DNA of 63,183 nucleotides, the filler included, from Hausera hauseri (Eukaryota): NCBI GenBank assembly GCA_046269625.1. It is 11 parts of 11 records of this genome, joined end to end, with 100 filler letters (N's around TTAATTAATTAA, not from the genome) between each part and the next. Parts side by side here need not be neighbours in the genome. Positions count along the whole stretch, not along the records: positions 1 to 9,691 come from JBJURY010308831.1; 10 more parts are not named here. One strand, written 5' to 3'. The number at the start of each line of letters is the position of its first letter. Position 1 is the stretch's first letter. The position numbers and the translations under genes are program-made. Positions 1-25,215 of this stretch are shown piece by piece. A model generated the notes under the pieces. That model saw only the letters and a program-made list of their open reading frames with translations. It did no database searches and had not been told where the DNA came from.

Positions 1-1470
1 ATACTACCTCGCTCGTTTTTCGTATTCATCTGGATACTTACCAATCTAAAAAATAAATAGTAAGGGTTAATCCTATGGCGAAATGTGGTTTTGAAACAAA
101 ACCAGTTCTTTGTTTGATGATAGAATAACCCGATCTGTAATTGTCAGGTTATTGTATCATAGACGTACCCTTGGGGTTTCAATACCCTTAATTCTCGTTC
201 TATGATTTTAGGACGTTTATTGTGACAATTTTTGGTGACTAATCAAAAAGTCGCAAAACATATTATAAGCACGAATGTTGACAGGCTTGCGATTATTATA
301 ATGGGCAAAGTAGTAGTTGTATCATGTCTCATGTCTTTGCTTGCATGTGTCGCTACTTGTATTTCCTTAAAGGTTTGTACTGTGAAGGTTTGACTCCGTA
401 GGTCTTTTGCATGTATATTTATTATGTATTCTGTCTTTGGTACTAATGAGTTGCATTCGGTGTGTTATGTGTCTTTCAGTAAGGTTGTTTTTATGCTTTT
501 ATACATCGTACGACAATTTATTTCGATGTCATAGTTGAGATTTTCTTCCACCGAAAATAATGTTTTACGTTGCTGTATCCAGCATTTCACAGGAATTCTA
601 AGTAACTTCCTTTTGTTCATCTTCTTTGTGGTAGTAAGCCTAACAGTGGTGCTTACTGGAACGGTCCGTCCCGTCTTCGTCGTTTCGACCGCAAATTTCC
701 AGATTTTACTGTTCGGATGATATCTTCCTAAATAAGTGCTAGACTTATTCATTCGAATTCCGTGTAGGTCAAAATGAATCCTATGTTCATAGCCTTCTGA
801 GATTTTACAACAGATCTTAAGATCTCTGTTCTTGATGCCACGATAATTGGGAATTGGGCTTAACTCCTTTATTTTGGTAAACTGGATTGAGATCTCTTGG
901 TTACTTGGCAATCTCCTTTTTGTATCTATTTGGATATATGTGTTTTTCTTATCTTCTGAAATACCAACTATGTTTTCATTCAACACCCATTTAATTGGAT
1001 CGGTTGAATGTACTATGTTGCTGAGTTCTGTTGCATTGACCCGTTCTCTGGCGGGCATTACTAATTTTACTTGCTGCCTTATCGCTCCTTGTGTGCGTTC
1101 GTATTGTGAAGATATAAGTATTCCCATAATTTATGACACAACATCCTTCTGGAGTTCCGTAAGGAAGATCGCAATGGCTCATCACTTGTTTATTCGCGTT
1201 CCATAGAACTACTTGGTATTTCACTGATTTTCTAACGGTTCCGTCCATCTTAAGTAGCACATAGTCTCGTATTGATCTAGACTTTGGAATGTGAAGCGAT
1301 CTGAGGTGCTCAAGTCGTTTCTTTTTATTCGTATCCATTCATCTTTCATCTATTCGTTTAGTTGTTCAATCAATCCTCCTTGATCCTTGGTTTTTGGCGT
1401 ATATGAAGCTATCAGTGATAGTGCTAAGACTATCTGTATGTATGATGTAGGTCAGGTAAATATAGACGAG
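1..1470 (-). pseudogene. Post-integrase type I membrane protein module (signal peptide, Cys-containing ectodomain, FN3-like domain, TM)
   Basis: Signal-like SYIQIVLALSLIASYTP near 1400-1450, ORFs 991-1338 and 465-1127, ECNSLVPKTEYIINI near 415-460, TM LPIIIIASLSTFVLIICFATF near 245-310. Homologous to 18855-20130 and 57420-58700. Confidence 0.65.
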
Positions 1471-1499
1471 GTCTTGACTTTCCTACAATTCGGTTTCTG

Positions 1500-4400
1500 G
1501 TTCGTTTTTGTATCCATTAAACGTAATTGGTGTCATCTATCTTGTCTTATTTCCGTTTTCACCACTCGTTGTATTGATACGACCTCTTCTTTCCGTTTTT
1601 ATTAATATAAACTGTAGTGGGAGTTATCCTGATAACTTTGTAAGGTTCTTTTCCAGTACGCATTAGTTTCAACGATGTGCCCTTCTTAGCTACGGGATAG
1701 TGCATATAAACCAAATCTCCGTTTCTTAAATCGTGCGGCTTTGCCTTCTTGTCGTATTGTCTTTTAAATCATTCTTGATATTCTAAGGATAGCGTCTTCG
1801 CTACCTCCCAACACTTTGTAGTCTAACTTGTAGAACGTCTGCAAAATTTGGTTCTAACTCTTCAATGTTGGTTTGATACGGAATCATTCCTAAGTCCGTC
1901 GGTAATGCTGCTTCTTGTCCATACATCATAAAAATAGTGTAAACCCTGTCGCATGGTGCGGTGTCGTACTGATGGCAAATTGGGTGCCTTCTAGGAATAA
2001 ATCCTAATTTATTTGGCCTTTTGCGACTACGGTTGATAATATTCGTCTCACAGTAGCATTCATGCGTTCAACCATTCCATTACATTGAGGGTGGTAAGCT
2101 GCCTTGGTCAACCTCTCAATTTCAAATATTTCGTGATTTTATCGAACAATTCACTGCCGAAATTTTTCCATCGATAGTATAATCAGTATCTGATCTGGAG
2201 GTCCATACATATAGATAATTTTTCTTACCACGGCTTTGGCCAACATCTCTTCCTTCTGATCATATAGTGGTACTAATTCTACGAAGTGAATTAAACGATC
2301 GACGCATGTTAGTATGTAGCTGTTATTTCTATGCGTCGTGGGTAATGGTCCTACGATCTCTATCGACATACCTTGCATTGGTATGTGTGGTACCGTTATT
2401 GGCTTCAATTCTGCTATGTAATTCTGCATTTTCTTCTGCTTAGTCGCGCATGCTTCGCAAGCGCTTACCCAATTTTTTACATCAAGATATATATATACTA
2501 GGCCAATAGTATTCGTTCAGTGCCCTATTTAATATCTTCTTCCAGGACATGTGTCCAACTAAATATGAATCGTCTTCGGCCATTAAAACTTCGGCTCGCA
2601 AAATTTTGGATATAAATATTAATTTCCTTCCTTTTCGTTCATAATACAGTACTTTTCATTATTCTTCTCATCGGAGACACAATATTTATGTCCATGTCGT
2701 TATAAATGTTTCTTTAACTGGTGTCTTTTTGGAATTACGTCTGCTTCAGCGCATTCAATGATTTGTTGGATAACCCGATCCTTCTTTTGTTCGCTTGACA
2801 TATTAATTGCTCCATCTAACGTTAAAGTTCGTTGTCGGTCTACTAACTCTTCGAGCTGATTTTTCTTCATTGTTGTAATAGCACTTTTCTTGTCTTCAAT
2901 CTTGACAATGCGTCGGCATCAACATGCTTCGAACAGGGATTATATTGGAACTAGATATTATGCCTCGATATGTTCTCAATCCATCTATTCAACCTACACG
3001 TAGGGTTATTTTCTCGTCCTTTTAAAGTTGTAACCGCTTTATGATCTGTAATTATTATTATCCTCTGTCCATATACATAGACATTGAAGTGCCTCAAGGC
3101 TTCTTTTACTGCTAACGTTTCTAATTCTATCACTGAATAGTTTTTCTCCGCTTTCTTTAGGCAGCGTCCTCCATAAGTGATTGGGCGTTCTAGTTCTTCG
3201 ACCTCGCGTTTCTGTGCCAATTCATATCCGATACTTTCTTTACTTGCGCCTGTTTTAATAATAAACGGTAAGCTAAAGTCAGGGTATCTCAGTACTGATT
3301 CGCTAGTTAGTATATTTTTCTTTTCGTCGTACGCCTTTTGTTCAACATCGGGCCATCGCCATTTTGTTCCTTTTTTAATAATCTATATAATGGCGCATTG
3401 ATTCTTGAGTTAATCGGTACGTAAGTAACATAATATCCACACAGGTCTAAGCAATGTCTCAGTTCTTTTTGGTTCTGGGGTTCCATGCAGTCTGAAATTT
3501 TGTTCAACAACGATTTGTCTGGATTCGATCCGCCCTCTCCAACTCTATGGCGAAGGTAGGATACGGCGTTCTGAGCCCATTTGCATTTCTTCGGATTCAA
3601 TTTCAATCCAGCCTGTTCTAATCTCATAAGTGTGTTTTCACTGTCCTTCAGATGCTCCTTTTCGTCTTTTGATGCAATAATTACGTCATCTACGTACAAA
3701 AACGCATGTTCGAGTCCCATTAGCATTTTATTTATCACCCTGATAAAAGTGACTGGTTCAGTGGTAATTCCAAATGACATAACGTTAAATTCGCACACTC
3801 CATCATGAGTTTTAAAAGCTGTTTTATAACGTTCTTCGTCTTCGACCTCTACCTGCCAATATCCGGATTGTAAGTCCAGAGTGGTAAACCATTTTGCTCA
3901 TGAGAGTCTGTCTAGAACCTTTTTCACAAATGGTAGGGGAAAAGAATCCTTCATCATGAGAGTATTTAATGCTCTATAATCGATACAAAATCGATGTTCC
4001 ATGGTACTTTCTTTTTGACCATAAGAATAGGTGAATACCAAGATCTGAAACTCGGCCTGATTATATCGGCCTTCAGCATTCCTTCTACTTTCTTGGTTAT
4101 CTCAGTTCTTAGTGAATGAGGTGGTGGGTACCGTTTTGGCATTTTCTGCTCTTCGAGGCCAATTTCGTCATTGGAACCAGGCTTTTTCTTAAGTGGTATA
4201 GTCAACTTTAACGCTTTAGATCGGTCAATGTCTTCTTCGTCCTTCGCGATAATTGATTTATACCGACATAATAAAATGGACAATAGATTTCTGGTGAAAA
4301 TTTAGTATCGACGTGTGGTAAAAATTTCTCTTCAACCGTTATTGTTGATACTCTGTAAGTATGCCCCAAAGTAGTGTTGGCGTATAATTTCACTGGAGTT

Positions 4401-5250
4401 TCAGTGTTATTCACCATTCTGACCGGTACTCGACCAGACGCTACTCGGGTTAATATATTGCTCAACAATATATTCGGATTTAGCCTTTCTTTCGGTTCAA
4501 AGTATAATGGTAAGTCGTCGTCTTGGCAGATTTGTGCGAATATTAACAATTCCATTCTAGGCGGAATGTTTTCGTCGACCGGAATCTATATCTCTCCGGC
4601 TCTCTTTCTTTATTAATCTTGGTTTTTTTTATCGGTCCGAGTTCGATTAATTTCGAGGCGTTTAAATCTACTGCAGCCTTCGGCAGACGTCTTAATATAT
4701 CACAGCCTAGCAGAACGTCGTCCGTTAAGTGTTCCATTATAGAAAATTTGTGCTAAAGTGTTTGTCCCATTATTTTAAGATTAAGGTTCCACTTAAATTT
4801 CGGTCTTGATTCCTGTCCGAAAGCTCCTATACTTCCGAGGTCGGTTGCTAGTGGTAATCGCAGTTGTCGTCGTAATTTTTTTGGTATTGATCCGTCCTTA
4901 AATAAACGATTTTTGTGATCCGGTATCTACTAGTGCGTATACTTCCCAGTCGTCAATACTAATTTTGGAGGAAGTCTACTTTCTTTTATCTTAGGTTGTC
5001 TAACGATGGATATCTTGTATCCATTTATACTAATTTCATGTACTTTATTCTCGGCTACTTGTCGTAATTCCTCAATGGGATATAATCCATTATTTTCGTC
5101 GTTTTCGTTATCTCTTTCCGGTGTATTGATTAGCGGTTCTCGGTTGTTTGGGTTATATAAAGATTGCATTTGTGGATTATCCCAAATTGATGATTTAGTT
5201 TCTATATTCCGTGTGATCCTTGAGGAGTATATCACTTTGTGGTCATCCAC
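1500..5250 (-). pseudogene. pol: Ty3/Gypsy pol (PR-RT-RNaseH-IN), disrupted
   Basis: Protease DTG near 4920, RT 3307-4100, RNase H 2900-3300, integrase zinc finger and core 1900-2600, C-terminal GPY-like region near 1640. Confidence 0.93.
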
Positions 5251-5325
5251 CGATTGGCGGCATTATTCAGATTTTTCCTTAATTCGGTACATTTTCCGTA
5301 ACGCCCCGTATTGCTTCATCCCTTC

Positions 5326-7436
5326 TTAAGCATCTTCATAACTAAAAGGTTTTCGATAGATTTCCGAGATATAAGGGTTAATGAATCTCTTACCGCAGAC
5401 CTCATATTGTGGTGCCGATGGGGGCAACATGGGCAAGGGCAGCTTTTGTGCCTGGTGATTGCCTATCTTGGAGACCGCGTCTCCTCCCTTAGGTTCATCA
5501 TCATCTGAATCGTCCCTTCGAAATTTTATATTTCTTTGTCTTACGAAAAATATTGGTTTTCTCTTTCGTTTCCGATTATAGTAACCAACGTATTTCTCAA
5601 CGTCGCTTTTCCATTTGTTTTCTTTGGAAGCCTTCAAAAATTTTCCAAAAGGCATTAAAATCGCCCTTAAAATTTTACAGGAAAATCTGGTTAGGGTGAA
5701 TATTTCATAGCCATTTATAACGGATTGAATTATTGCCTTTATGAGTTGCACTAAAAAATAGATAGCCAAAAATCCAGATACAGATTGTCCGAAAATTAAA
5801 AATCTTCCCCAGATTTTATATAGTATCTCTGTAGTGACTCTTTGATAATGATTAACGCCAAGTAGGGATTCCAGTTTTGCTTGATAGCAAGTGTCGTCCA
5901 TTACCGTCGACATGGCTCTATTCAATTCGTGTGTAAGTTGTCGATGAAAGGCTAGAAATTGCCTGAAAGCCTCAATTTCCTTTGGTCTGTAAATCCCTTT
6001 ACTTGCGGTGTCAGCGAACGTATCATGCGTTATACCTTTTAGCAAATTTGTCACAGTTAATTTGTGTGGCTGTTATTCCTCCATTTGGTAAACTTACCCA
6101 GTCTGTTTCAGTTCTCTTAAACATAAGTTCCCTAAACCAGCTTTGCATTCCTTCAAAATCGTTCGTTGCGTTGAATTTTTCAGTAAGACTCTTGTAAGCG
6201 GCATAGCCAATCGAGGTATGCTTTGGTATAGGACCGGCAGCTCTTGTATACAACGTTTTTTGTCCACGTTTATAGATACGTCTCGTTTTTCGTATTTGTA
6301 GGTCAAAAGAAACTCCCCAGTAACTCTTCCGAAAATACCTTTCTTCATCGGAATTACGGGTGATGCTAGTTCTGGATTTGCGTAGATTAAGGTTATTTTG
6401 GTCCTCATAATTTCTAAATCCAATGTACAACCATTCGCGATCATTTTGTGATATAATTCCGTTAGTCCGACTTGTCCTTTATAATAAAGGTAATCATCTC
6501 TATTTTTGAAATAATCTTTTATTCTTACGTCTTGAGTTACCAAAGCAAAAGTAGTTATTGCAGGTTCTTCCAAGAAGAACGCTTCATAATTGGTGGCGTA
6601 CATTACTACATTACATCGAGAAAGCATATGCTTCTTAATAAACTTTAACCCGTGATCTTCGGAGATCAGTATTGTAGGTGTGGATTGTTCGGTCACGTCC
6701 TTCCTTGACCTGGCATTATTGTCAGTTGTGTCCACATATATTTTTCCCATGGTTTCATTAAAAAAATTTTTATTTTAATAATGTTGCAATTGTTCATAGG
6801 TGGTGGAGTCAAAATAACTATAGAATTTCGAAAGGTACAGGCACCATCTTGGATGTGGCACTTCTGGTTTTCGGTATAAGTTTTTGTAACACTATGGAAC
6901 ATCACCTTTTGGTTCCTCATTTCTGTCTCATAGAAATCGACCACTGCTATTCCTCCTCCTTTTCCTTTTCCCATATCATATTTACCCCCGCTCCAGTATC
7001 CTGTGTGCATATTTAGTTTCCAAACTGCTACTTTATATACACGAATTATCTTTCCTGGTTCGGCCTCTATCTACATCCCGTCCCATTTCAATCTTCCGGT
7101 TTCTTTGGCTTGTTTACACTGTTGTCGATCCGAATCCAAAGGAATTAGGCGAGTCGTTGGTTTTACGATCGATGAATGTCAGTGCATGTTCCCACAGTGA
7201 AAAATACTTCGTGATCGTCTAAACATGCACTCTATTCCGTCTATTGCGATTATTTCATGTTGCTGATATAGAAAATACTTTTTCTCAATGGTCACTAACT
7301 TGTGAGGTCTGGCGTCCTCACATAATTCCAGATCCATCAGGGAATATTTCTGACCTATTTTAAACTTATCACAGTCATATACCGTGATCGCACCAAGTTG
7401 CCTTATTAACATCATAAATGTTATTAGTTTGACCAT
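5326..7436 (-). pseudogene. Chuvirus-like glycoprotein (env-like), frameshifted
   Basis: Signal ...MMLIRQLGA/ITVYDC, SLMDLELC, IFHCGNMH and C-terminal WGRFLIFGQSVSGFLAIYFLVQLIKAIIQSVINGY match the recalled chuvirus glycoprotein pattern (GYDC..SLLDV..C, HCGMHSH, WGKFL.FG..SAG..GI). Confidence 0.82.
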
Positions 7437-7439
7437 CCA

Positions 7440-9691
7440 ATTTGATTTGCTATCTCGTACTGAGTTGGTATTAAATTTCTTACCACATCTTCAATTCTAG
7501 TGGCTGACCTGTTTTCATCGTCGTCAAATAGTTTGGACCAATTTATTTCTTTCGGTATTTTCCAAGCAGCTTTCATGATCAATCCAATAACTCTATTGAA
7601 TTCATTTTCCCGTAAGAGATTTGTTTTTATCGCTAATTACAATATCACTTTCCTCAATTCTTCCTTAGTATTCTCTAGCATAATTTTCTCACTTAAGACT
7701 CCATCGGGTAAGGTACTTTTATTCATTTTGAATCGAAATGTTCTCATCATTCTTGCAGCGTCATAAATTGCCTTTAGTTTTCATTTAATATGTCATTCCT
7801 TGGTCATGAAAAATTCACTATTTTTATGGGGTTTCTCAGCAACTCGTTTAATTCTTCACTATCTGAATTAATCGCTTGCATTGACAACTGTCTTAGTTCT
7901 CGGATTAGAGTCGCGTTATGGTCAACTTCATCTCTTACTTTTCTTGACCTCCAAAATGGTCGTTTCTGTTTCGGCACAGTGGGTATCGCTTCGCTAACCG
8001 GTACCAAATTCCTATCATATTGTTCCTTATCTCCTTCACTTTGTAGGAAGTCAAAATACATGACAGAGTCTAGAATCCCTATAACGCGTCCTACGCAATG
8101 TTCCTCTTTGGCTTTCATTATGGCTTCGAATTTGGTTTGTTCATCGGTGATTATAGCCACTATTTTATTTTATTCCTCTGGAATATTTCCAACATCTATT
8201 AGTAATTCGGGTTCATGTAGTATCCTGCCTCGGAAGTATAACCAATAATTTACTTTGTTCTTACCATTATTTTGCACTATCCACTGTTTGACTTCTCTAA
8301 GTGATGTTACTGTTGTACATTCAGTTTCAGTCTCTTCCATCCATTCCGCTGATATTTTTACCTTTGTTGTTATTTCGTGTTTAGCTCTCAAGAAATCGGC
8401 GTATTTCTTTATCAATAGTCTGGGTACTAAACTATGAACGGTATTTTCACTTCACAGCTTAGTTAATGTAGGAATCAATTGCCTTAGTTTGTTTTCTGTC
8501 ATATTTACATTAATTTGCTCTATTAATTCGTTCTGGGCCAGTGCGGGATCTAAGAGCATTTCCATATTGAATCGTCGATCCACTGGAAGGATATCCATTT
8601 GTTGAAGTTGGATGGATGTTTCTGGGTTTTGGTTTTACACATCGTCCAAATAAGCAACCCATACTGGATCGTCTGCAACGTCTGGAAATCCATAATCTAA
8701 TAATGCCGTGGACACGCTTCGTACATTTTCGCTGATCTCGCTTAATCTCGTCTGTATCTCCTTCATTAAATTGGTTCGAAACTTTACCCCGTTTCCGCAC
8801 GCGACTTGTATCGTTTTTAATGTCGGTCCTAATTCATCTGCAGGGAGCAGTACTTTTCTTTCGTAATCCGTTAAATCGGTAGTTACGTCCGCTAGCCATC
8901 TTTGTACAAATTCCCTTCTATTCTTTATTTCAGATCGCATGAACTTATATTTATTCCTATAAATCTCCCATTCTTCGTCTAATTCATTTAACTTCGTAGC
9001 TCTTTGCTTTGTGCGGATTCTCAGTTCTTCTCTATCTCTAACTTGAGTCGTCAATTGTCGTGCCTGGTCGTCATCTATCTCTGCCATTGTCTATAGCAAT
9101 GATATTAGTCCCTGCATTTCCTTTAGAGTTTTTGAATCTGGATCTATTTCTTCGATCAGTCTCTTTATGAATTTGGCCTCATCCGGTGTGACGTGGCAGT
9201 CTTTCATTATTTCTATCAGTTCAGCATGTCAATTCTGGTCGGTATCCGATGCCCACTCAAAACGACGATGTAGAAATTTTAATACTTCTTCTAACGCGAT
9301 CCGATGGTTTGGACAAATGTCCAGCGTTGTTAAATCACATATCGATATTTCATCTATGGGTCTTGTTGTCAAGTGTCGTACACCTTCTAGGCGAACACCT
9401 TTTAGTCTCATCGATAAGGAGGAGGTATTTTCCTGTTTCGCTAATAATTCCATTCCTTCGATCGTCGCATACAATTCTTCTTTGAGTTTTATTTCCTAAT
9501 TTTTGCTCATAAAGTTTAATGTCGATAATGCGTTAAATTCAACCCGAAGGTTTGTCTCTGTTTTAAAAGCATCTAGATGCGGAGTATTTCTTTTAACTAT
9601 TGTTTGTTTATTGGTTCACATTCTGAGTATTTTCTTAGACGATATTTCGTTAAATCTGCTACTCTATCTAGTAGTTCGATCCATTCTTTAA
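7440..9691 (-). pseudogene. Region X of the element polyprotein (unknown, helical, internal ubiquitin-like domain)
   Basis: ORF pieces 9229-9474, 8635-9087, 8170-8415 and 7804-8160 align with 11200-13100 and 14600-16100. Confidence 0.7.
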
Positions 9692-9791: not shown

Positions 9792-9817
9792 ACGCGATAG
9801 CACCAAAACGAAGTGAT

Positions 9818-12800
9818 ATGACACGGAAAAAGAGTGTTCCAACAGGTAATAAATCTGAAAAACCAGGCACCTCGACAGAAGTCGACTTAGACGCAGCGCC
9901 TGAGTTTACGGTTGAAAAAGTAGCTAAGTCTACTGATGACGATACAGCAGAAAAAGAATTCATGGAGCCATTAATACTTAAAATTAAAAAAAATAGAGGA
10001 CGTAGCCCTTCCTTAAAAACGAAGCGTAGAAGTCGCTCACACTGCAAAGTAACTAGAGAGAAAATTGAAGAAACAGAAAATTCAAACATCGTTGTAGAAG
10101 GCGACGTGGACTATAGTTTGAATGCACCAGAGATTGGTTCACTCACTCCTGTCGGGGTAGCGGAGTCTATAGAGTCAATCAATGAAATTAACGAGATTTG
10201 CCCACTTTCCATTAGTGAGGAAGAAGCGGAGAATACTGATAATTTCGATCCAAAGAAATGGAAAGTTCGACGTTCGTGGAAAAATGCCGATGAATTAAAG
10301 AAAATGAGAATTAGATGTAATGATCCTGAGATATCGCAGCAAGATTTAGAAAGGCTTAAACAGATTGTCGAACAGGTCGATATATCCGGAAAGGAACAAC
10401 AGTACGTTGAGAGGTTATGAAGAAGTTTGAAACTATGTATGAAGGAAAACTCGTCGAAGCGATCAACTTGAGACAACCTATAGAAGTGTCACTTGAGACC
10501 TTATTAAAATGGAATGGATGAAATTCGCGGTGCAATGATTAATCGGCTTAGGGAAATACCGGTTAGTAGTAGATGTAATGTCAATTTGGAAATATTGGGT
10601 ATAGACTCAGTGAATATTCCTCCCCTGATGGAGTGATAAAAATCGCATTTGCTGTATCCAAATAATATACAAACCTGGAGAATCGGATCAAAATAGAAAA
10701 TAAAAAGCGAGCACAGATTTATAGCTTGAAAAACCGGATTATGTCTCCAAACAACGAAGAAACCAAATACGCAGTAAAGGCTTGTATCGCAGAATTGGAT
10801 GAATATAAGGACGAGTTTAGTTATGCCGGCCGAATTATGAAATTCCTAAGAGGACCAGATGATGAGTTGAAAGATGCATATAAGATGTTAGATAAGGCTA
10901 TAATGGCAAAGCCAATAATCGCAAATCAATTGTCGGAATGGTCTGAATTACTAATGCGATTAAGCAAATTAGTGGAAAACCGAAAGAAAGAATTTCCAGA
11001 AAGCGAACCTTCCGTGAAGAAACAGTTAGAAGAAAGCGCACGTAATTTAGAGACAATGCTAGCAGAAATAGATATCCGAACGCGATTAGAAGCATTACGG
11101 CGACTCAAATTCATGAAAAAGAAACAAGAAGCAGCGATACTAGAAGAGATCTATAAAATAGTCGAAGAGACGAATTTTACAAAAAAGCGGAATATGACTT
11201 GCAATTTTTACCCTAGATTAAGAACGATCCGACTATAAGGAGTTCAACATTTAACAGATAAACCTATAGACCAGATTTCCGCTCAAGATATTGAAACCCT
11301 AGACATTTGTCCGGAACACCGAGCCGCTTTGACAGACGCAATAAAATTTTTGCACAAACCGCAAGAATGGATGGCCGAAACGGATCAGAATTTTCATACC
11401 GAGTTGACAAAGATAATAAATGATCAACATCTCAATTTGCAGGAACCTAAGTTCATAAAGAAATTGTTGGATGCAGTGGACCCCGACTCAAAGTCATAAA
11501 TGAAATGTATGGGTGGAAATTGACGACGAGAATATGAGGCAATTAATGCCAAAATTAGAGAAAGAAGAAACATGCATCAGAACAAAGCAAAGAGCAATAA
11601 GGCTTGATGAACTGGCGAAAGAATTCGAAATCTACAGAAACAAATATGCTTTTACGGAATCAGAAATCAAAAATAAGCGGAATTCGTACAAAGGTGATAA
11701 AGAGATGTGATTATCGAACTAACCGATTAACACCAAAAAAGACTCATCAATTCTAATGAATTAGGCAAATTATTAAAAATGATTCAATATGCTTGTGGAA
11801 AGGGAATAGGTTTCCGAACTACGCAGATAAAGGAAATGCAATCCAGGCTAAAAGAAATTCGAGAAAATATGCAAAGAACAAGTGTAGCCTTAGTAAGCGC
11901 TGGACTCCCAGATGTCGGAAATGAGCCGGAATGGAATGCATACTTCGATGCGATACTTTCCGAAAAACCCGTGACTCTAGTGCAACTAAATGAAATAGAA
12001 ACGTGTCCGCAGAACAGGAGATTCAATGTGGAGGTGCTTCTGGATTCAGCGCTAACTGAAAAAGATTTAATCGAACTAATTAATGTAAACATTACCGAAA
12101 GTAAATTAAGACAACTTATTTTGACATTAACTAAATTATCTAGTGAGAATGCGATTTATAGCACGGTGCCGAAACTTTTAATAAGGAAATACGCCATAAT
12201 CTTAAGGGCTAAACCTGAAGTAGCGATAAAGGTAATAATATCATAGTAGTGGATGGACGAAAAAGAATGTGAATTAACTACATACTCCTATGTGAGGGAC
12301 GTAAGAGAATAGTTATTAAATAATGGCGACCTAGAACAATTAATAGATGTCGGAATTATTCCCGACGAAACAAATCGATTAGTAACCATAATAGCTAACG
12401 AACAGACAAAAGAGGAAACCACGCGTAAGGCTAAGACAGAGCAATGCGTAGGGCAAATTATGGGAGTCCGAGACGCCACAATGTACTTCGATTATTTACA
12501 AACAAATGAAGATAAGGAACAATACGATATAAACTTAGTACCACTGAGCGAAGTAACGACAAAAGGCCCAAAGGCGAAACGTCCGGTTGGTAGGCCGAAA
12601 AAGACGCAAGAGGAAATTGAATATAATGGAGAACTAATTAAGGAACTAAGGCAGATATCGATTCCGACCCTCAGTACAAACAACGAGGAATTAAGCGAGT
12701 TAATGAAGACTTTAATACGATTTGCAACTTATTCGAGCCTTCGAGGTGATGTATTAGATGATAAAGAAAAGATAATTTTCGACGCAGCTAGAATGATGAG

Positions 12801-13110
12801 AAGTTCACGTTTTAAACTATAGAAAAGTAACTTAACCGATGAATCGATTATCAAAAGGATCATGATGGAGAACACCCATGAGGAATTGAGAAAAGTATTA
12901 CTATATTTAGCTATTAAAATAAACCCTAATCGAGAGAACGAAATCAATAGAGCCATAAGTCTAGCCCGAAAATCGGCAAGAAGATTGCACTGTGAAGTAA
13001 ATTGGTCAAGACTGTTTGACAAGGAAGAAGACAGAAGAAACAATAGTAAACTCGGCGATATATTACGGAATTTGACAACGGCGGATGTTGGGTGCCGGAA
13101 GAATGAATCA
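9818..13110 (+). pseudogene. Region X (about 1100 codons, coiled-coil-rich, partly deleted UBL, AT-hook)
   Basis: ORFs 9818-10420, 10726-11238, 11513-11710, 11779-12246, 12460-12822 and 12862-13332, mostly separated by single stops or frameshifts. KRPVGRPKK at 12577-12603. Confidence 0.7.
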
Positions 13111-14310
13111 AATTGGTTAATTAGCTTACTCATTTTGATGATGCTAATAAAGCATATAGGCGCCGTTACCGTATACGATTGCGATAGATTCAAATTAGGA
13201 CAGAAATATTCTTTGATGGATCTAGAAGCATGCAAGGATGCCAGGCCGCACAAGTTGGAAACAAGAGAGAAAAGTTATGTTTCGTATCAACAACAGGAAC
13301 TGATTTCTTTGGATGGGTGGAATGTATGTTGAGACGATCTGGTAGTATTTTCCACTGTGGACTAATGCACGGACATTCTTATATAATCAAACCAACTACT
13401 CTTCCGATACCAATGAACGTGGAGCGCCAGCACTGCAAGCAAGCTAAGGAGACCGGAAGATTGAAATGGGATAGTATGGAATTAGAAATGCAACCCGGAA
13501 AGATAATTAGAGCATATGAAGTAGTGGTAGGAAGGTTAGATATGCATAACGGACACTGTAGTAAAGCCGAATACGATACTGGTAAAGGATTAGAAGCAAA
13601 TATAGTAGTCTTGGATTTCTACGAATCGGAGATGCGATTACGGAAGGTAATGTTCCATAACGTCACTAAATTATACACTGAGAACCAAAAATGCCATTTA
13701 CAAGACGGAACCTGTGCTTTTAGAAGTTCTGTTATAATATGGGAACCTCCCTCTGGAAGAAGTTGTAACATTATTAAAATTAAAGAACTGAAGTTTAATG
13801 AAACTACTGGAAAACGATATGTGGTTAAATCGGATACCAACTCAAGGCCACGCGAAGACGTATCAGAACATCCTACGCCCACTATACTAATCTTGGATCA
13901 ACATGGATTGAAATTTATTAAAAAGGAGATGATCTCTCTTTGCGACGTAGTAATGTTTGCTACTAATTATGAAGCATTTGTCGTTGCAGAAACGGAAATA
14001 AGTGCAAAAACCTACAAACTAGAAACGCAGGATGTCAGAATTAAGAACTATCTGAAAAATAGAGATGATTACTTCTATTATAAGGGATAAGTCGGAATAA
14101 CGGAACTATATCACAAAATGATAGTGAATGACTGCAAATTAGACACCGAAATCATTAGAACTAAAATGGCTCTTATATATGCAAACCCAGAATTAACTTC
14201 TCCAATAATTCCTATGAGGGAATTTTCGGTCGGGTTACGGGCGAATTATTTCTAACATATGATTGCGAGAAGAGAGATGTACCCATCAACGTGGAAGAAA
14301 AACGTTGCTA
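13111..14310 (+). pseudogene. Chuvirus-like glycoprotein, N-terminal part
   Basis: NWLISLLILMMLIKHIGA/VTVYDCDRFKLGQKYSLMDLEAC, then IFHCGLMHGHS, CHLQDGTC, SCNIIK, YLKNRDDYFYYKG. Confidence 0.82.
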
Positions 14311-14510
14311 TTGTGATCGGCCGTCCAATTGATCTTAAAATTATCGGAAAAAAGTAAAATAAGATCAGGTTTAACCTGCATTTTTGGGCGCATGAAAATC
14401 GACTTGGATANNNNNNNNNNNNNNNNNNNNNNNNNNNNNNNNNNNNNNNNNNNNTTAATTAATTAANNNNNNNNNNNNNNNNNNNNNNNNNNNNNNNNNN
14501 NNNNNNNNNN

Positions 14511-17500
14511 TCATAATCGTAGACGGTAATACCACTTATATGCTTTATTAGCATCATCAAAGTAAGTAAGCTAATCAAACAATTAGATTCGCTTTTCCTG
14601 TTACTATTATCCGTCGTTTTCACATTATGTAGCATATTTTCGATTCTACTGCTATTTTCGGACCGTTTGTCTTCTTCCTTATCGAATAGTCTCAACCAAT
14701 TTACTTCGCAGGGTAGCTTTCATGCCACTCTTCGTGCTAAGCTGGTAGCTCTATTAATTTCATTCTCTCATTAATCCCGGACTCCCATGATTTGTCCTAC
14801 ACATTGTTCTGTCTTGGCCTCACGGGTAGCTTCTTATTTAGTCTGTTCATTGGCTGCTACTACCACGATACAATTTGTTTCGTCGGGGGTGATTCCGACA
14901 TCTATTAACTGTTCTAGATCGTCCAGTATCCTACCTCTGAAATAGAATCTATGGTTTAGTTCTTTCATTCCACCATTGTTTATCAACCATTCTCTTACAT
15001 CTCTCATGTAAAAATACGTGGTTAACTTACATTCTTTTTCATCCATCCACTGGAATGACATTTTTACTTCCATCGTTACTTCGGATCTAGCCCTCAAGGT
15101 CTTAGAGTATTTCCTTATTAAAAGTTTCGGCACCACGCTATAAATTGTGTTCTCACTAGATAATTTAGTCAAAGTCGGAATGAGTTGTCTTAATTTACTT
15201 TCGGCAATGTTTACATTAATGAGTTCAATTAAATCTCCTGTTTTGCAGACACGGTTCCAATTTATTTAACTGTACCGGAGTCACAAGATTCTCGGCTGTT
15301 ATTGCATCTAAATACGCGTCCCATTTCGGTCATTTCCAACGTCTGGAAGCCCATAGTCTGTCAACGTTGTGTTGAGTCTGCACACGTTTTCTCGGATTTC
15401 TTTTAATCTTTGTTGTATTTCTCTTATCTGCATAGTTCGAAAGCCTAATCCGTTTCCACGGGCATACTGAATCATTTTCAATAGTTCGCCTAATTTATTA
15501 AAATGGATGAGTCTCTTCTGATGATAATCAGTTAGTTCCATAATAATATCTTCTTGCCACCTTTGTACAAATTCACACTTATTTTTGATTTTGGACTCGG
15601 TAAAAGCATATTTGTTTCTATAAATTTAGAGCGCTTTGGTTAATTCGTCTAACCTTGTTGCTCTTTGTTTGGTTCTAATGCACTTCTCTTTGGCCCATCG
15701 TATTTGAGGCATCAGTTGTCTCATCTTCTCATTACTAATTTCTGTCATTTCTACTGAGATAAAAGCTAACTCGTACATCTCATTAATGATTTTGAGTCGG
15801 GGTCTATCGCATTGAGAAATTTCTTTACGAACTTAACTTCTTCAAAACTAAGATGAGGGTCGTATCTTATTTTTGTCAACTCGGTATGACAGTTCGGATC
15901 TGTTCCGGCCATACATTCTTGCGGTTTATGTATGAATCTCATTGCTTCTTCTATAACCGTTTTATGTTTTGGACAAATATCTAAAGTTGCGATGTCCGCG
16001 ATGGAAATTTCGTCGGTAGATTAACTATTAACTGTTGGATTCCCTCTAGGCGAACGTTCCTCAATCTTTGATAAAAATTTCAAGTCATATTCCGCTTTTC
16101 TGTGAAGCTTTTTTCTTCGATCACCTTATATATCTCCTCGAATATCACCACTTCTTGCTTCTTCATAAAATTTAATTATCCTAATGCTTAGAACTGAGTC
16201 AGGATATCTATTTTCGCTTGAATTGTATCTAAGTTATGTGCAATTTCTTCTAATTGTTTCTTTATAGAAGGCTCACTTTCTGAAAATTCTCTCTTACCGT
16301 ATTCCACTAATTTACTTAATCTCGCAACTAATTCTGACCAGTCATGCAGTTGATTCGCCATTACAGGTTTTGCCAATATGGCCTGTCTAGCATTTTATAA
16401 GCATCATTTAATTCATCATCTGGATCTTTCATGAAACTCATAATCCGGGTGATATAACTGAACTCATACTTATACTCGTCGAATTCTGTGATACAAGCTT
16501 TTATTACATATTTGGTTTCTTCGTTATTCATAAAAATAATTCGATTTCTCAAGCTACCAATTTGTGATCTCTTTTCTTTCTCCATTTTAATACGATCCTC
16601 TAAATTCGTATATTGCCTAGGCACAGCGAAGCAATTTTTATCATTTTCATAAAAGAGTAATGTCTACTGGGTCTATATCCAGTATTTCCAAATCGATATC
16701 ACTTCGATTGCTAACCGGTTTTTCTCTAAATCGATTAATCATTGCACATCGAATTTCATCCATCATGCATTCTAAATTACGGACTACTCTCTTTATTTTG
16801 GGATTAGTTTCTAGTTTAAATAATAACGTTTGAGCCTCGGCTACTTTCACATCAACAGTATCTTCGCTTTTACTCCACCCTTCCGAGAATTCGACTCCAA
16901 TTTTAATCCATGTTTCTAATTCACGTTTCCATTTTGTTAACGTTCCGGCTGGTACCTATTCAGGTTGTTCTAAGTCGATTGTTTCATAGAGCTTTCCTTC
17001 ACTGTATAATTTTAAACTTTTATATAATCTCTCAGCAAATTTTTGTTCTTTACCGGATATATCTACTTGTTCGCTAATCTCCATAAGTCTTTCTAAATTC
17101 CGCTGTAATGTTCATTTTCTTTAATTCATTGGTGTTTTGCCATGAACGTCGGATTTTCCATTTTTTGGATCAAAATCATCAATATTTCCCGTTTCTTCTT
17201 TACTAGTGGGAAGTGGGCAGACCTTGTTAATATCGTTAACCGACTCTGCAGATTCTTTTATCTCAGTATGTGTAAATTGACCTATTTCTGGTGTATTTAA
17301 GCTAGGCTCTACGTCGCTCTCTACACCGATGTTCGTATCTTTGGTTTCTTTTATTTTCTTTTTATTTATTTGCATTTGTAAACCACTTCTACGTTTCGTT
17401 TTCAATGGAGGGCTACGGCCCCTGTTTCTCGTGATTTTAAGTATTAATGGTTCCATAAATTCCTTTTCTGCTACCTCATCTTCAGTAATCTTGTCTACTT

Positions 17501-17740
17501 TTCCTATCGTGAACTCAGGCTCTGCATCTAAGTCGACTTCTATCGAAGTTCATGGTTTATCTGCTGTTCTATTAGTCGTCGGAACACTCTTTTTCCGTGT
17601 CATATCGATTCGCTTGGATGCTATCGCATACTCATATTCAGTTTTTGGTTCTGCTAAATCATGATACTCTTCTAATAACCTTAATCTATCTGCGTATTTT
17701 TAGACATCAAAATTTGTGGGTTAGTACTCTCAGGCTGAGC
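14511..17740 (-). pseudogene. Region X plus glycoprotein signal peptide, with a deletion of roughly 450 bp near 14772
   Basis: Homologous to 9818-13180. UBL-like segment in ORF 14834-15172. MGVRD joins directly to ENEINRA, unlike G2. Confidence 0.7.
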
Positions 17741-17752
17741 GTCTAGAAATTT

Positions 17753-18660
17753 TCACAAATTTTGTATGTCGATAATAGTACTTGTGTCTTCATGATCACC
17801 ATACTTTACTTCCAAGATTTCCTTCACTTTAATCATAGTAGTCTTATTAGGCTCTGTAAATGAAACGCTGAACGGATTCGGACATAACCGTGCAATGCTT
17901 TCTTCTCTACTGCAGGCAAAACGAACACAATTTCCATTTCTGCCGACTCTTTGCCGACCGTCTTCATTCACAGGTGATTTGGACCTATTTGTGCTTCTAT
18001 TGTCCTGGTTCGACAACCCTTGCGTAATATCTACATTTCGACTATCCTCGTAACGATTTCGATAGTTCAAACCTTTATAACTATTTGGATTCGACTTATT
18101 CGTATTTTGATTGCTGGCGTAATTATTATTTCGGCTATTCCTGTAGTCGTTATTATTATTCCTATTCTCATAATTTCTATATCCATTAAATCGTCTATCA
18201 TCCCTTCCGCGATTATCATTTCGATTCTAATCGCCATGATCGTCGCGATTATTATTTCTATTATTTCTATCATTGTATCTGGTATACTTATCGAGTGCCA
18301 TTTCTAAGTCTTTGGCCAAAAGCAGAGTTTTCTCGAAATTCTCAGGTCTGGCCAAAATCAATTCTTTAACTAAATCTCGGGACCAAATGCCATTAATTAA
18401 TTGATTCGTAATCATGACATCTAGATCTGGCGGGGTTGCCTTCTCCGCAGCATCACGCTCTGCATCTGATTTAGCTTTTGCTACATTAGCTATCCTCAAG
18501 GTGCTTACATAACTAATAGTGAGTTTCCTTAATGCAAATGCAAACTGGGTTACGAATTTCCCCTTCTGTTGCACCCTATTCAGAAATGTTATAAGTTTCT
18601 GTTGTGGCGTTGCAGTTGGCAATAATTTATGGTTCAATGCTCCTACCAAGGCGGACCAAG
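17753..18660 (-). pseudogene. gag: Gypsy Gag (capsid region, Arg/Asn-rich linker, degenerate CCHC knuckle)
   Basis: TWSALVGALNHKLLP..RVQQKGKFVTQFAFALRKL..NQLINGI..LILARPENFEKTLLLAKDLE, an R/N/D-rich tract, then RFACSREESIARLC (worn CX2CX4HX4C). Confidence 0.75.
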
Positions 18661-18854
18661 TGAGGAGGAATTCAGGAAGCCAATATAAAGTGAGGAAATT
18701 CATAAGAGGAGGAAAATAAGGTTCATTTACTGATTGAATTGAGTGAAATGTTATNNNNNNNNNNNNNNNNNNNNNNNNNNNNNNNNNNNNNNNNNNNNTT
18801 AATTAATTAANNNNNNNNNNNNNNNNNNNNNNNNNNNNNNNNNNNNNNNNNNNN

Positions 18855-20130
18855 ATGACAACGTTGTTCATTTAGTCAATTTTTCCGTTTTAACGGTAGT
18901 CATAATCTCATCCTTCGTTTTCTCGTTGGTTAATGGCTTTGTCAATACAATATCATTTAACGTTCGTACCGTAAACGTTCTACTTTGTTTGTTCTTGGCG
19001 TTCATCTGTATTATGTAGTCTGTTTTGGGTTTTAAACCAATACATTTGAATCGATGACTGCCTTTAACCAATATTAATTTCTGATTATCGCATAATGTTC
19101 AGCAGCTTATTTCTAGGTCGTAGTTAAGTGTTTCCTCCACAATGAAGGTTATTTCGCACTGTTGTGCCTAATATTTTAATGGAATTGTTTCTAGCTCCTT
19201 TTGAGGTACTCCCTTTGTTTTTATGAATTTGGTGAAAGTTGAAATAGTTTTATTCATTTTCGCAGTCGTAATTTTGTTGGTTGTTGTTTCAAATGGAATT
19301 CCTAACATCTGATTTTCCAATTGATAAATTCCTAAGAAAATACTTGACTGGCTTGGTCGCACTTCATATAAGTCTAATCGAATTCTATATTTGTGTCCCT
19401 GAGTAACTTGCAACAGTTATTCGGTCATTCAGTGTCGATTTGACAGTATTGCTGGTTATAAACTGCTTTGTCTTCTTTCAGGAATTGAACCGTTATTACT
19501 CGTCCTTTAATCAACCGTCCCTTTGTATTTATTTGGATAAAATTATCTTTTAGATTTTCCATTATACTCGCTACGTTTTCTTCTAACATCCGTTTCAATG
19601 GATCGATAGAATGGAGCATATCTTCTAACTCTATACTGAGGTAATCTCCATACGTTTGTGGTATAACTAAGTGTGAATTCAGATTTAATTCAGAGCGTAC
19701 TTCATTACATTTCGGTAAATATGCACGATAGATGAGTGCGTAGGAATTTCAATATTTTACACTGCAACAAACTGTATCGTCTTCTGGTTCGAATTCGCAA
19801 TCAGACTCGGCTCGGCTTAATAGGTCATGAAATAGTATTTGAATTTGCCCTTCATATAGTCCTGGTAACCTAAATCCAACAAATGGGATTTCTGGCGAAA
19901 AATAATCTAATTTTATTGCTCGTAAAAATTTCTCGTCCTTTTTTTCAGTTTTATGTTGGGGAGTTCCCTCCTTTTGTGACGGTGGTTTCAATCCGGCTTT
20001 CCTGATTCCATATATATCGCTCAACGAATTTTCATCTACCCACCATTGGGCGTTAGACTTAGGCGTTAAGGTGGCAATCAACGATAAAGCTACTATTATT
20101 TGTGCATAAGATACTGGTCTAGCAATAATC
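18855..20130 (-). pseudogene. Post-integrase secreted or membrane module with FN3-like domain
   Basis: ORF 19749-20306 runs from the integrase tail in frame into PVSYAQIIVALSLIATLTPKSNA. FKCIGLKPKTDYIIQM (L-x-P-x-T-x-Y) near 19000-19050. Confidence 0.65.
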
Positions 20131-20139
20131 GACAATGTC

Positions 20140-23100
20140 TTGTTTTCGCGAGGTCTTAGGTTGTATGGTTTAGCTGGTATTATATCGGTTTTGACCACTC
20201 TTTGGATTGATACGACTTCTTCCTTTCCATTTTTATTAACATACACTGTGGTCGGCGTTGTGCGGATGATTTCATATGGTTCTCTTCCGGTACGTGTCAA
20301 TTTCAAAGATGCACCTTTCTTTGCGACTGGGTAATGTATATAAACCCAATTACCTTTTTCTAGATCATGAGGTTTAGTCTTTTTGTCATATTGTTTTTTA
20401 AATTGTTCTTGTTATTCTAGTGATAATGTTTTTGCCACTTCCCAACACTTTAGCAATCTTGTCTGTAAGACTTCGGCAAAGTTCTGCTCTAAATCCTCGA
20501 AATTCTTTTCGTACGGTGTCATGCCTAAATCTGTGGGTAAGATGGCCTCTCGTTCATACATCATAAAGAAAGGTGTAAATCCTGTTGCTGGAAGTTGAGT
20601 TGTATTAATTGCAAACTGCGTTCCTTCTAGGAATGCATCCGAATCCTTTCGGTCTTTTGCCAGTACTGTTGGTAGTATGCGAATGACTGTCGTGTTCATT
20701 CGTTCGACCATCCCATTACACTGTGGGTGGTATGCGGTAGTAGTTAAACGTTCAATTTCGAATATCTTGATAATTTTTTCGAATAATTTGCTTGTGAAGT
20801 TCCTGCCTCTATCCGTTAAACTTTGTTCTGGTGGTCAGTATCTGCAGATAATTTTTCTTACTACTGCGTCGGCTAATGTTTCCGCTTTTTGATCCAATAG
20901 TGCCACCAATTCGACAAAATGCGTCAATCGATCCACGCATGTTAGAATGTATCTGTTGTTTTTATGAGTTTTAGGTAAAGGTCCTACTATATCCATAGAC
21001 ATAGCTTGCATGAGCCTATCTGGTACGTTTATGAGTTTTAATTCTGCTACGTAGCCTTTCGTTTTCTTTTGTTTTGTAACGCAAACTTTGCACGTTCCTA
21101 CCCAATTCTTTATATCGATATAGACACTTGGTCAGAAATATTTGTTTAATATCCTTTCCAATGTCTTCTTCCAAGACATATGTTCGGCTAAGTATGAATC
21201 GTGTTCTGCCATGAGTACTTCGATGCGCAATCCTTTTGGAATAACTATCAGTCTTTTTCTTTTCACTCGTAATATACTATATTATCTTAATTTGATGCAT
21301 TATATTTAATTCCGTGTTTCTGTAGATTTTTTTTCAGTTGTTGTCCTTTGGACATTTTGTTGTTTTGTACGAACTGGATAATTTGCTGAATAACCGTGTC
21401 TTTAGCCTGCTCGGCAGTAATTCTAATCGTCTTCCCCGATATTAGAGTTCTTTGTCGTTCAATTAACTGTTAAAGTTGTGGCTTTTTCATTATGGTGATA
21501 GCACTAGTTTTTTTCTTTAACCTTGACAGTGCGTCAGTGTCGACGCGTTTATTACCCGGTTTATATTGGAATTCAATGTTATATCGCGAGATTTCCTCAA
21601 TCCAACTGTTTAATCTACATGTTGCGTTATTAGCTCGTCCTTTCAATGTTGTAACTGCTTTTTGATCAGTTATTGTAATAATCTTTTGTCCATAGACAGA
21701 CATTAAAATATCCTAGGGCTTTTTTACGGCTAACGTTTCTAATTCGGTAACCGAATAATTCTTTTCTTCTTTCTTTAGTGAGCGTCCTCCATATGCTATT
21801 GCATGTTTTAATTCTTCATCTTCTTGTTTCTGAGCTAATTCGTATCCTATGCCTTCTTTACTTGCATCTGTTTTAATGATGAATAGTAGGTTAAAATCTG
21901 GGTATCTTAAAACTGGTTCACTTGGCAAAACTTTCTTCATTTTGTCGAATGCTTTTTGTTCCACTTCTATCCATCTCCACTTAGTTCCTTTTTTGAGTAG
22001 GCAATATAGTGATGCCTTAATTTTTGAAATGTCTGGTACGTAAGTGGCATAGTACCCACATAGGCTTAATCAATGTCTTAATTCTTTTTGGTTCTGCGGT
22101 TCCATGCAATCGGATATTTTATTTAGTAGAGATTTGTCCGGTTTTGATCCTCCTTCTCCTGCTATGTGTCCGAGGTACGATACTGCATTTTGTGCCCATT
22201 TGCATTTCTTTGGACTCAGTTTCAGCCCTGCTTGTTCTAGCCGCATAAGTGTATCCTCAGTGTCCTTTAAGTGTTCTTCCTCCGTTCTTGATGCTATTAT
22301 CACGTCGTCTAAGTACGCGAATTCATGATCGAGTCCCATGAGCATCTTATTCATCATTCTAATAAAAATAGCTGGTCCTGTGGTGAAGCCGAAAGGCATA
22401 ACATTAAATTCGTATACGCCATCGTGTGTTTTGAACGCTATCTTATATCAATCTTCTTCTTCGATTTCCACTTGCCAGTATCCCGATTGTAAATCAAGAG
22501 TGGTGAACCATTTTGCTCCCGATAGTATGTCAAAGCTTCCTTTACTGACGGTAGGGGGAACGAGTCCTTTATAATCAGTGTGTTTAATGCGCGATAATCT
22601 ATACAAAACCAATGCTTCGTGGTTTCTTTCTTCTTAACCGTAAGTATAGGTACGTACCACGATCGATAACTTGGTCGAATTATGTAGGCATTTAACATTC
22701 ACTCTACTTCTTTAGTTATCTCCAGTCTAAATGAGTGAGGAGGCGGACACCACTTGGGCATTTTCTGTTCTTCTAGGTCGATTTCGTCATTTGATTGAGG
22801 TTTCTTCCTCAATGGAATTGTTAATCTTAGAGCCTTTGCTCTACCTATGTCCTCTTCATCTTGCGTTATTATCGAACGGAATTTACACAATAATTCGTAG
22901 AATTTGCAATACACTTAAGGAGAGAATTTAGTTTCAACATGAGGTGGAAATTCGGCACACTTGTATAGTTTCTCCTCTATTGTCACTGCCTATAATCTAC
23001 AAGTGTGGCCTAAAATAGTGTTAGCGTGTAATCTTACGGGGATTGGTGCATTGTTTATTAATCTAATAGGAATTCGTCCCGTCACTATTCTACATAAAAT

Positions 23101-23899
23101 AATGCTAAACATAAGATTTGTACCGATATTCTCTTGAGGCTCGAAATATACTGGCAGATCCTCGTCCTGTTGAATCTGTGCGAAAATTATTATTTTGGTT
23201 CTAGGCGGAATGTCTTCATCTACCATAATCCATACTTCGCCCGATTTCCTTTCTTTTATTACCTTTGTCCCTTTTATTGGTTTGAGTTCAATTAATTTCC
23301 CGTTATGCACATCAATTGCCATACCCGGTATCTGTTTTAGTATATCACAACCTAGTACTACATCGTCTGTTAACTGGTCCATTATTGCAAATTCGTGTTG
23401 AAGTGCTTGGCCCATCATATGAACAGTAGGAGTCCATTTAATATTTCGGCTTCGATACTTGCCCAAATGCTCCTACACTACCTGGGTCCGACGATGCGGG
23501 TGGACATAGTTGGTCTCGCAATGTGGTCGGTATAGATTTATATTTTACAAATGATTTTTCTAATCCTGTGTCGACTAATGCATACACTTCCCAATCTTCG
23601 ATGTGTATTTTAGCGAAGGGTCTCCCTTTTGCTACTGTTCCGCAGCAATTTGACACTATCTTGGACCGTTTTATAGTAGAGACTCTGTGTCCGTTTATTG
23701 TTATTTCTGGCGATGACATGATATCTTGCCTTAATTGTCTTAATTCTCCATTCGAATACAAGTCGTTATTTGTTATTTCAGTAACGCGACTGTCAATAAG
23801 CGGTTCCTGGGGTAATGAACTTGAAATTAAACACAGTTTTGGGTTCTCCCAGATCGCTGATTTTATTCTATGTGACGCGGTATGTTTTTTTGAGTACAA
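20140..23899 (-). pseudogene. pol: Ty3/Gypsy pol, disrupted
   Basis: EVYALVDTG, FCIDYRALN, MPFGFTTGPAIF..YLDD, TDASKEGIG..NYSVTELETLAV, YHPQCNGMVERMN. Confidence 0.93.
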
Positions 23900-23940
23900 T
23901 ATTCCGTGGTCGTTTTCGTTTGGCCCTTAGTGAATAACAT

Positions 23941-25215
23941 TCATTTACCGTAGTACTCATATTGCTTTGTCTTCTCATAAGGATCCTCATTATTAATAGG
24001 CTTTCGATAGATTTCTGACCTACATGATACGATTGATTTTCGGTCACAGTCTTCATATATTGGTGCTGTAGGCTGCATAATAGGTAATGGCGCATTAATC
24101 ACTGAATACATCTTGTGCATATTCATTCTGGAATTCACTTCGCCTCCCTTTGGCTTGTCATCGTCCAAATCATCTTTCCGTTTTACTGTCTTATTCTTAC
24201 GTCTGTATAAAATCGTGGGTATTCCTCGTCGTTCTCGGTTATAGCATTTAACATGACGTTCTACGTCGTTTTTCCAACGGGTTTCTTTATAGGCCTTAAC
24301 CATCTTCCCAAAGGGTGTGATAATTGCAGTCAAAATTTTGCAACAGAATCCTGTTAACGTGAATATTTCATATCCGTTGATGATGGCTTGGATTACTGCT
24401 TCAATTAGCTGGACTAAAAAGTAGATAGCTAAGAATTCAGATGCGGCTTGTCCGAAAATCAGGAATCTTCCCCAAATCTTGTACATTATTTCTGAAGTTA
24501 CTCTTTGATAGTGATTGGCGCCGAGCAATGACTCCCATTTCGCTTGAAAGCTGGTGTCATCCATGACCATTGACATGGCTCGATTCAGTTCATAAGTTCG
24601 TTGTCGTGGAAACGCTAAAAATTGCCTAAAAGCTTCTATGTCTTTTGGATTGTAAATTTCTTTATTAGCTGTATCTTCGAATTTATCTTCCTATAATCCT
24701 TTGACTAGATTTGTTCCCGTTAGCTTTCTAGGAGCTGTGGCCGTACTTTCATTTGGTAAAATTATTTAGTCATTTCCATTACGTCTAAACATAGGTTCGC
24801 CTAAGCTTGTTTTGCATTTCTTTAGTATTGTTTGTCCCGTCGATACTCTGGTAAGTGGAATCGCTAATCTCGGCATATTCTGATAGATGACCGGTAATTC
24901 CTGAATGCTTCTTTTTTCTTCTACGTTGATCGGTACGTCTCTTTTTTCGCATTCTTATGTCAATAGGACTTCTCCAGTAACTCGCCCTAAAACACCGTTT
25001 TTCATTGGAGTAATTGGTGATGCCAGTTTTGGGTTGGCGTAAATTAAAGCCAATTTGGTTCTCATGACTTCAGTATCTAATCTGCAGTCATTTGTTATCA
25101 TTTTGTGATACAGCTCTGGTATTCCGATTTGTCCTTTGTAATAGAAATAATCGTCTCGATTTTTGAGATAATCCTCGATCCGTATGTCTTGCGTTTTCAA
25201 ATCATACGTTTTCAT
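23941..25215 (-). pseudogene. Chuvirus-like glycoprotein, C-terminal half with PTAP tail
   Basis: YLKNRDDYFYYKG, WGRFLIFGQAASEFLAIY..INGYEIF, QPTAPIYE. Confidence 0.82.

Follow-up and report, generated by a model that had tools for sequence, protein, structure and literature searches.

Decayed Burro-like GAG-ENV-POL Ty3/Gypsy elements of Hausera hauseri with a chuvirus-like glycoprotein ahead of Pol and a probable further surface protein behind the integrase

The stretch of DNA analysed here, called the window in the following, comprises 63,183 nt of the Hausera hauseri assembly GCA_046269625.1 and consists of eleven separate contigs of 4-10 kb with 100-nt spacers between them. Five of the eleven carry pieces of one Ty3/Gypsy family, each on a contig of its own: G1 (1-9691, minus strand, JBJURY010308831.1), G2 (9792-14410, plus strand), G3 (14511-18754, minus strand), G4 (18855-25215, minus strand) and G5 (44172-48269, minus strand). 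All five are riddled with stops and frame changes; the element copies in the window are broken and unable to carry out the cycle proposed below. No LTR pair was seen within the window, the contigs of which end in or just past coding sequence, and scanning for PBS-like patterns gave nothing informative. At the end of G1 a purine-rich run (1-40, minus strand) follows shortly past the last coding frame, and the depth in run X1 is far above that of the next bins over the first 324 bases; this end may represent a polypurine tract and the edge of the LTR. One public sequencing run matched the window, with no RNA run among those listed, and 4,518 contig pieces of one such run align to G1 with at least 90% identity, in keeping with a family of numerous variant copies. 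Three contigs (25316-31067, 31168-39230 and 48370-53235) share another Gypsy family that is unrelated to the first and comprises a Gag region weakly matched by DUF7041, RNase H, integrase and the start of a reverse transcriptase (RT). Probable host exons lie at 36192-37004, 49149-49832 and 27638-28111, where the families Ints3 HEAT, proteasome PC repeat and RRM were weakly matched.

On G1 alone, a region X, a signal, the glycoprotein, protease (PR), RT, RNase H (RH) and integrase (IN), a second signal and an ectodomain with a transmembrane (TM) segment follow each other within one contig. This piece lacks Gag and the initial third of X, which are supplied by G3 and G2. The initial annotation had put the layout together from five overlapping copies; its order from X to the TM segment is borne out by G1, but the full layout combines pieces of different subfamilies, as the five copies sit on five contigs and are mutually 65-78% identical. 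The start of Gag not counted, the pieces together imply some 11.8 kb (~3,930 codons) of coding sequence. The position of env upstream of pol, a trait of GAG-ENV-POL gB-type errantiviruses, is found on the same contig in G1, G4 and G5. Since each of these three holds the glycoprotein and then Pol within one contig, the order was not made by the spacers, and an artefact of this kind was rejected.

The Gag-like region is found in G3 (17753-18754, minus strand), where its start is cut by the contig end, and comprises a capsid-like part, an Asn/Arg-rich tract and a degenerate Cys knuckle. As it gave no Pfam match, its identity as Gag rests on resemblance and position. X is whole in G2 (about 1,100 codons), where it is followed by the signal (~13111-13165) and the first two thirds of the glycoprotein (9792-14410, plus strand). 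In G3 it precedes the signal and the first glycoprotein residues (14511-17699, minus strand) and has lost some 450 nt relative to G2. G1 holds its C-terminal two thirds (7460-9691, minus strand), which are helical, contain several in-frame stops and show codon-position bias. A weak ubiquitin-like stretch in the X of G1 (~8173-8451; PF00240, E 0.027) lies below the Pfam cut-off and found no ubiquitin counterpart in the PDB sequence search. A stretch of X in G3 matches the part preceding the glycoprotein in P0161 (E 2e-6), one of the natural relatives described below. Bcl-2 gave no Pfam match in the X of the window, and a profile-profile comparison of the end of X with the relatives P0014 and P0064, in which the profiles were very shallow, returned a probability of 0.25%, so that a likeness of this end to BCL2 is not supported. 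MATH, BIR and ankyrin domains were absent from the 58 window frames scanned with Pfam.

In G1, the glycoprotein (5326-7388, minus strand), recognised by Pfam and by tblastn with relatives, is entered through an internal signal-like hydrophobic segment (7380-7436, minus strand) that was identified by sequence and hydropathy and is found at the same position in relatives. It ends in a TM segment (~5772-5716) and a cytosolic tail, and is interrupted by stops and frame changes. G4 and G5 hold its C-terminal half, in G5 with the TM segment and followed by RT and RNase H. The family PF24664 (Monjiviricetes_fusion) was matched above the Pfam cut-off in G1, G2, G4 and G5; in G1 three frames pass (E 6e-7, 6e-12 and 4e-18), and a fourth glycoprotein frame is without match. 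An AlphaFold model of residues encoded by G2 (13323-14087), based on an alignment of 66 sequences, reached a pLDDT of 83. Foldseek with this model returned no match at E≤0.001, but the rows shown were all class III fusogens (gB, GP64, Dhori, Chandipura G), the best at 8e-3. A VIA wide structure search placed HSV gB at the top (Z 6.1, rmsd 11.2, 189 aligned), followed at ranks 2-4 by Bourbon virus GP (5.8) and HCMV gB (5.7 and 5.4), with secretins close below (Z 5.1-5.3). The comparison with class III structures that had been put forward as a check thus leaves class III proteins on top with weak scores. In the PDB, single window glycoproteins found nothing meaningful by sequence, but with a profile of the 66-row alignment herpesvirus gB made up 29 of the 31 sequences at E≤1 (E 0.06-0.3). 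The structure scores are weak alone but agree with the Pfam and profile searches, suggesting that the glycoprotein is a chuvirus-like class III fusogen; both this assignment and the placement upstream of pol had been proposed initially. A metagenome contig scan with the glycoprotein gave 54 pattern matches, none of which was confirmed.

The Pol region is likewise broken in G1 (1583-4960, minus strand), with the protease DTG at ~4925, a spacer, RT at ~4017-3361, RNase H at ~3355-2897 and integrase at ~2655-1583; G4 (within 18855-25215, minus strand) also carries Pol. The best PDB match of the RT is Ty3 (E 4e-29), above caulimovirus and foamy virus, the RNase H matches in Pfam are to families of the Ty3/Gypsy type, and no BEL/Pao family was matched among the window frames. 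By its sequence, the order PR-RT-RH-IN with a Ty3-like RT and RNase H identifies the element as Ty3/Gypsy (Metaviridae), in agreement with the initial annotation. The spacer of ~150 residues between protease and RT is common to the window and its relatives and found no match in Pfam or PDB, where a dUTPase-like domain was looked for.

Are these parts read as one chain? The passage from X through the signal into the glycoprotein is free of stops in G2 and in G3, two of the three copies; in G1 it contains a frameshift. From the integrase into the second signal the frame is open in G4 (20411-19749), and G1 keeps one frame with stops. The passage from the glycoprotein into the protease is broken in all three copies, each time differently: by two in-frame stops in G1, as claimed before, and by a single frame change in each of the others, downstream of the tail in G4 and inside it in G5. 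Beyond this frame change, the tail of G5 is open into the protease (46936-46166). The junction between Gag and X is contained in G3 only, where the two lie in different frames (Gag 18754-17753, X from ~17699), so that in-frame reading, assumed initially for the junctions, is not shown for Gag-X. The breaks are copy-specific, falling in different places in different copies. Moreover, in pairwise alignments of the copies, with the frame taken as the one with fewest stops, third codon positions differ by 0.37-0.60 as compared to 0.12-0.36 for second positions in all ten regions, X and the 3' protein included (p 1e-7 to 2e-42), and first positions, too, differ much less than third ones. This bias means that every part, X and the 3' protein among them, diverged as coding sequence before it decayed, and, as judged from the substitutions, it shows past purifying selection on all parts of the element. 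X, glycoprotein, Pol and the 3' module very probably formed one polyprotein with signal and TM segments, as read from the frames.

The 3' module of G1 (144-1484, minus strand) comprises the second signal (~1484-1380), an ectodomain with a fibronectin type III (FN3)-like motif C-x2-L-x-P-x-T-x-Y (~455), a TM segment (~308-252) and a short tail. G4 (within 18855-25215, minus strand) has the second signal in frame from the integrase (20411-19749), the ectodomain and the FN3-like motif (~19045). The succession of signal, ectodomain and TM segment after the integrase is found in G1, in G4 and in all four relatives that reach that far, and two cysteines are invariant in the ectodomain. The motif, as C-x2-L-x-P-x-T-x-[YH], occurs in all four relatives running past the integrase and in exactly two of 1,077 window frames, those of G1 and G4, where shuffles expect 0.015, the motif having been picked after both sets had been seen. 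A profile of the four relatives' modules ranks the same two frames first among the 1,077 (E 0.002 and 0.004). In Pfam the ectodomain has weak FN3-clan matches only (fn3, E 0.088; Pur_ac_phosph_N, E 0.026). The best Atlas matches for the ectodomain of P0161 are FN3 clusters (0.92, flagged weak), the first part of the G4 ectodomain gave no usable match in the Atlas, and PDB sequence searches with the 3' protein or X of the window returned nothing meaningful. A model of the P0161 ectodomain has a pLDDT of 37.5. Its FN3-likeness is thus putative, a lead suggested by the sequence rather than a result. A second surface protein after the integrase is likely, and it may be undescribed so far: no post-integrase FN3-like protein of LTR retroelements was found in the literature covered, and Repbase entries and figures, which lie outside that scope, may show it. 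On another contig (53336-59026, plus strand) there are long, nearly unbroken frames (340, 625 and 647+ residues) with several signal- or TM-like stretches and no Pfam family above the cut-off. The last of these frames reads as signal, ectodomain with a variant FN3-like motif and TM segment and ranks third of the 1,077 for the post-integrase profile (E 0.046); possibly this contig stems from the 3' region of a larger relative.

A search with the G5 glycoprotein against 1.84 billion representatives gave 221 matches at E≤0.001, the best 150 of which were listed, and 13 listed matches together with three cluster members were scanned with Pfam. Glycoprotein and then protease stand in one ORF in 12 of these 16 and in eight of the nine that were scanned among the ten best relatives; P0150 has the usual order with the integrase first. 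ORFs with a layout like that of the window measure 2,627-4,844 residues. P0007 (2,627 residues) runs from a knuckle through X, signal, glycoprotein, PR-RT-RH-IN and second signal to ectodomain and TM segment, and P0010, P0161 and P0157 (2,855, 3,003 and 4,844 residues) have the same order from X onward. The window is co-linear with these single-ORF relatives at an RT identity of 43-48%. In NCBI, P0007 is entered as hypothetical and assigned to a Flavobacteriaceae metagenome bin (HBK71150.1), an assignment that probably reflects contamination of the bin, as this is an animal-type retroelement. Between glycoprotein and RT, P0157, P0015, P0010 and P0161 have aspartyl-protease-like domains in tandem, from two up to six or more, with further ones after the integrase in P0010 and P0157; the window family has one such domain. 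P0047 carries three immunoglobulin domains ahead of a PF24664 glycoprotein in one ORF.

The arrangement is known from Burro/GYPSM1, a giant Ty3/gypsy element of planarians in which env lies in frame between gag and pol within one polyprotein (PMC6431247). The initial annotation had staked its claim of novelty on the want of an already curated family with this layout, and Burro is such a family. By its published description rather than by its sequence, Burro has Gag, a long accessory region with a Ubi/SUMO-like domain, env in frame, PR, a spacer and RT-RH-IN, all within a single giant polyprotein. The window family appears to share this order, with its Gag-like region and the ubiquitin-like stretch of X as putative counterparts, but the Burro ORF of 4,873-5,140 codons, in an element of over 25 kb, exceeds the ~3,900-4,000 codons found here (PMC6431247). 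The BCL2, MATH, BIR and ankyrin domains of Burro were not detected in the window. Its env, which matches mononegavirus glycoproteins, is likened to gypsy Env/F proteins, whereas that of the window is of class III, and a membrane protein after the integrase is not mentioned in the available text of that paper, which also reports decayed fragments in a related species (PMC6431247). Because MATH, BIR, ankyrin and the size of Burro are not found, the window family is not Burro proper. Its relatives do appear to bear Burro marks in their sequences, namely a weak Bcl-2 match directly before signal and glycoprotein in P0014 (E 1e-3, below cut-off), the place at which P0008 and P0064 have a GGW motif, and ankyrin repeats in P0157.

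Anakin elements, ascribed to Dezordi et al. 2020, are reportedly BEL/Pao elements with a chuvirus glycoprotein, which is said to lie after pol. The window shares with them a glycoprotein of the chuvirus family in an LTR retroelement (PMC10084718; PMC13524379), but its Pol is of the Gypsy and not the BEL/Pao type, and its glycoproteins group apart from free-standing ones of ~650 residues. The errantiviruses of Nematoda, Bryozoa and Platyhelminthes are described as having only HSV/gB-type env in the order GAG-ENV-POL and include nine flatworm and ten bryozoan elements; Schmidtea accounts for six of these, the copy numbers of which reach 215 (PMC13524379). They have a Ty3/gypsy Pol and a gB-type env before pol like the window, and the six Schmidtea ENV rows share with it, by eye, TP-x-x-M/I...G-x-x-F-I-K-K...C...Y/F-A-T-N-Y. 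Those elements are intact whereas the window copies are relics, and the main text mentions neither in-frame fusion nor a post-integrase membrane protein nor fibronectin (PMC13524379). The chuvirus-like glycoprotein of mosquito BEL/Pao elements is reported beside gypsy pol in 114 elements (PMC13524379), and Gypsy fragments beside chuvirus-like glycoproteins have been noted without clear capture (PMC10084718). The available text of the papers on Troyka (PMC12440569) and PIWI (PMC8532177) has no bearing on the layout. The order with env before pol is therefore real but already published, and the window holds another decayed, divergent family of GAG-ENV-POL gB-type Gypsy elements.

Taken together, the five contigs are best read, at a probability of roughly 0.85, as a decayed Burro-like GAG-ENV-POL Ty3/Gypsy element with a class III fusogen between Gag/X and Pol, likely made as one polyprotein of ~4,000 residues. 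How could such a chain be sorted? It would thread the ER twice, Gag and X staying in the cytosol. The first signal would carry the fusogen ectodomain into the ER, with signal peptidase cutting after it, and the TM segment of the glycoprotein would bring the chain back to the cytosol for PR-RT-RH-IN. For Pol to be cytosolic the number of membrane passages of the glycoprotein must be odd; behind its TM segment lies another hydrophobic stretch that, if it spanned the membrane, would invert the topology of Pol. The second signal and the last TM segment would make a separate type I surface protein, freed by signal peptidase, while the element's protease would cut apart the cytosolic Gag/X and PR-RT-RH-IN. 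Particles would then bud with the fusogen, the 3' protein helping as a likely attachment factor.

It was proposed at first that the Gypsy lineage of the window had captured a chuvirus glycoprotein independently and anew. The glycoprotein is indeed only 25-33% identical to its ten best matches and sits on a long branch (1.92), and GAG-ENV-POL elements are described as not monophyletic in the POL tree (PMC13524379). In a quick maximum likelihood tree of 125 glycoprotein rows with arbitrary root (28 of 153 matches, shorter than 170 residues, were dropped), however, the three window rows fall into a set of 19 rows (SH-aLRT 96) that also contains 12 of the 13 rows marked by a downstream protease motif and lies apart from ~100 free-standing glycoproteins. 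The window and its relatives moreover share the ubiquitin-like stretch before the glycoprotein and the motif after the integrase. A separate capture is thus largely refuted and very improbable.

As an alternative, Gag could have been a separate ORF, joined by programmed frameshifting or splicing, so that only X, Env, Pol and the 3' protein formed one chain and Gag was made in excess of Pol. Capsid assembly would be poorly served by a chain that yields Gag, Env and Pol in equal amounts, and in G3, the sole copy with the junction, Gag and X are in different frames. One such frame change is, on the other hand, expected from decay, since 11 of the 15 indels that separate G2 and G3 over 2.7 kb of X are not multiples of three. 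A CCHC knuckle precedes the glycoprotein in the same ORF in four relatives (P0007, P0015, P0016 and P0018). PMC13524379 speaks of GAG, ENV and POL ORFs, in the text available leaving fusion unstated, but Burro is one ORF (PMC6431247). A separate Gag is thus rather unlikely. Somewhat more probable, though still the minority view, is that glycoprotein and 3' protein served cell-to-cell passage or membrane-anchored assembly inside one animal instead of free infectious particles. The contribution of env to infectivity is called unclear (PMC13524379), but an entry protein needs just what is kept under selection here, a class III ectodomain of full length, conserved cysteines and a TM segment.

On the preferred reading of a fusogen-bearing polyprotein, the relatives and the window may form a clade whose polyprotein yields a two-part entry machinery, with a class III fusogen ahead of Pol and a separate FN3-like attachment protein after the integrase, which is put forward tentatively. 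Such a division of labour between fusogen and attachment protein is known from herpes- and paramyxoviruses; to our knowledge it has not been described for retroelements. The post-integrase membrane protein shows selection in the window family and is present in all relatives long enough to include it, at an RT likeness of only 43-48%. Should it serve in attachment, it would tell how these elements with their gB-type envelopes choose target cells.
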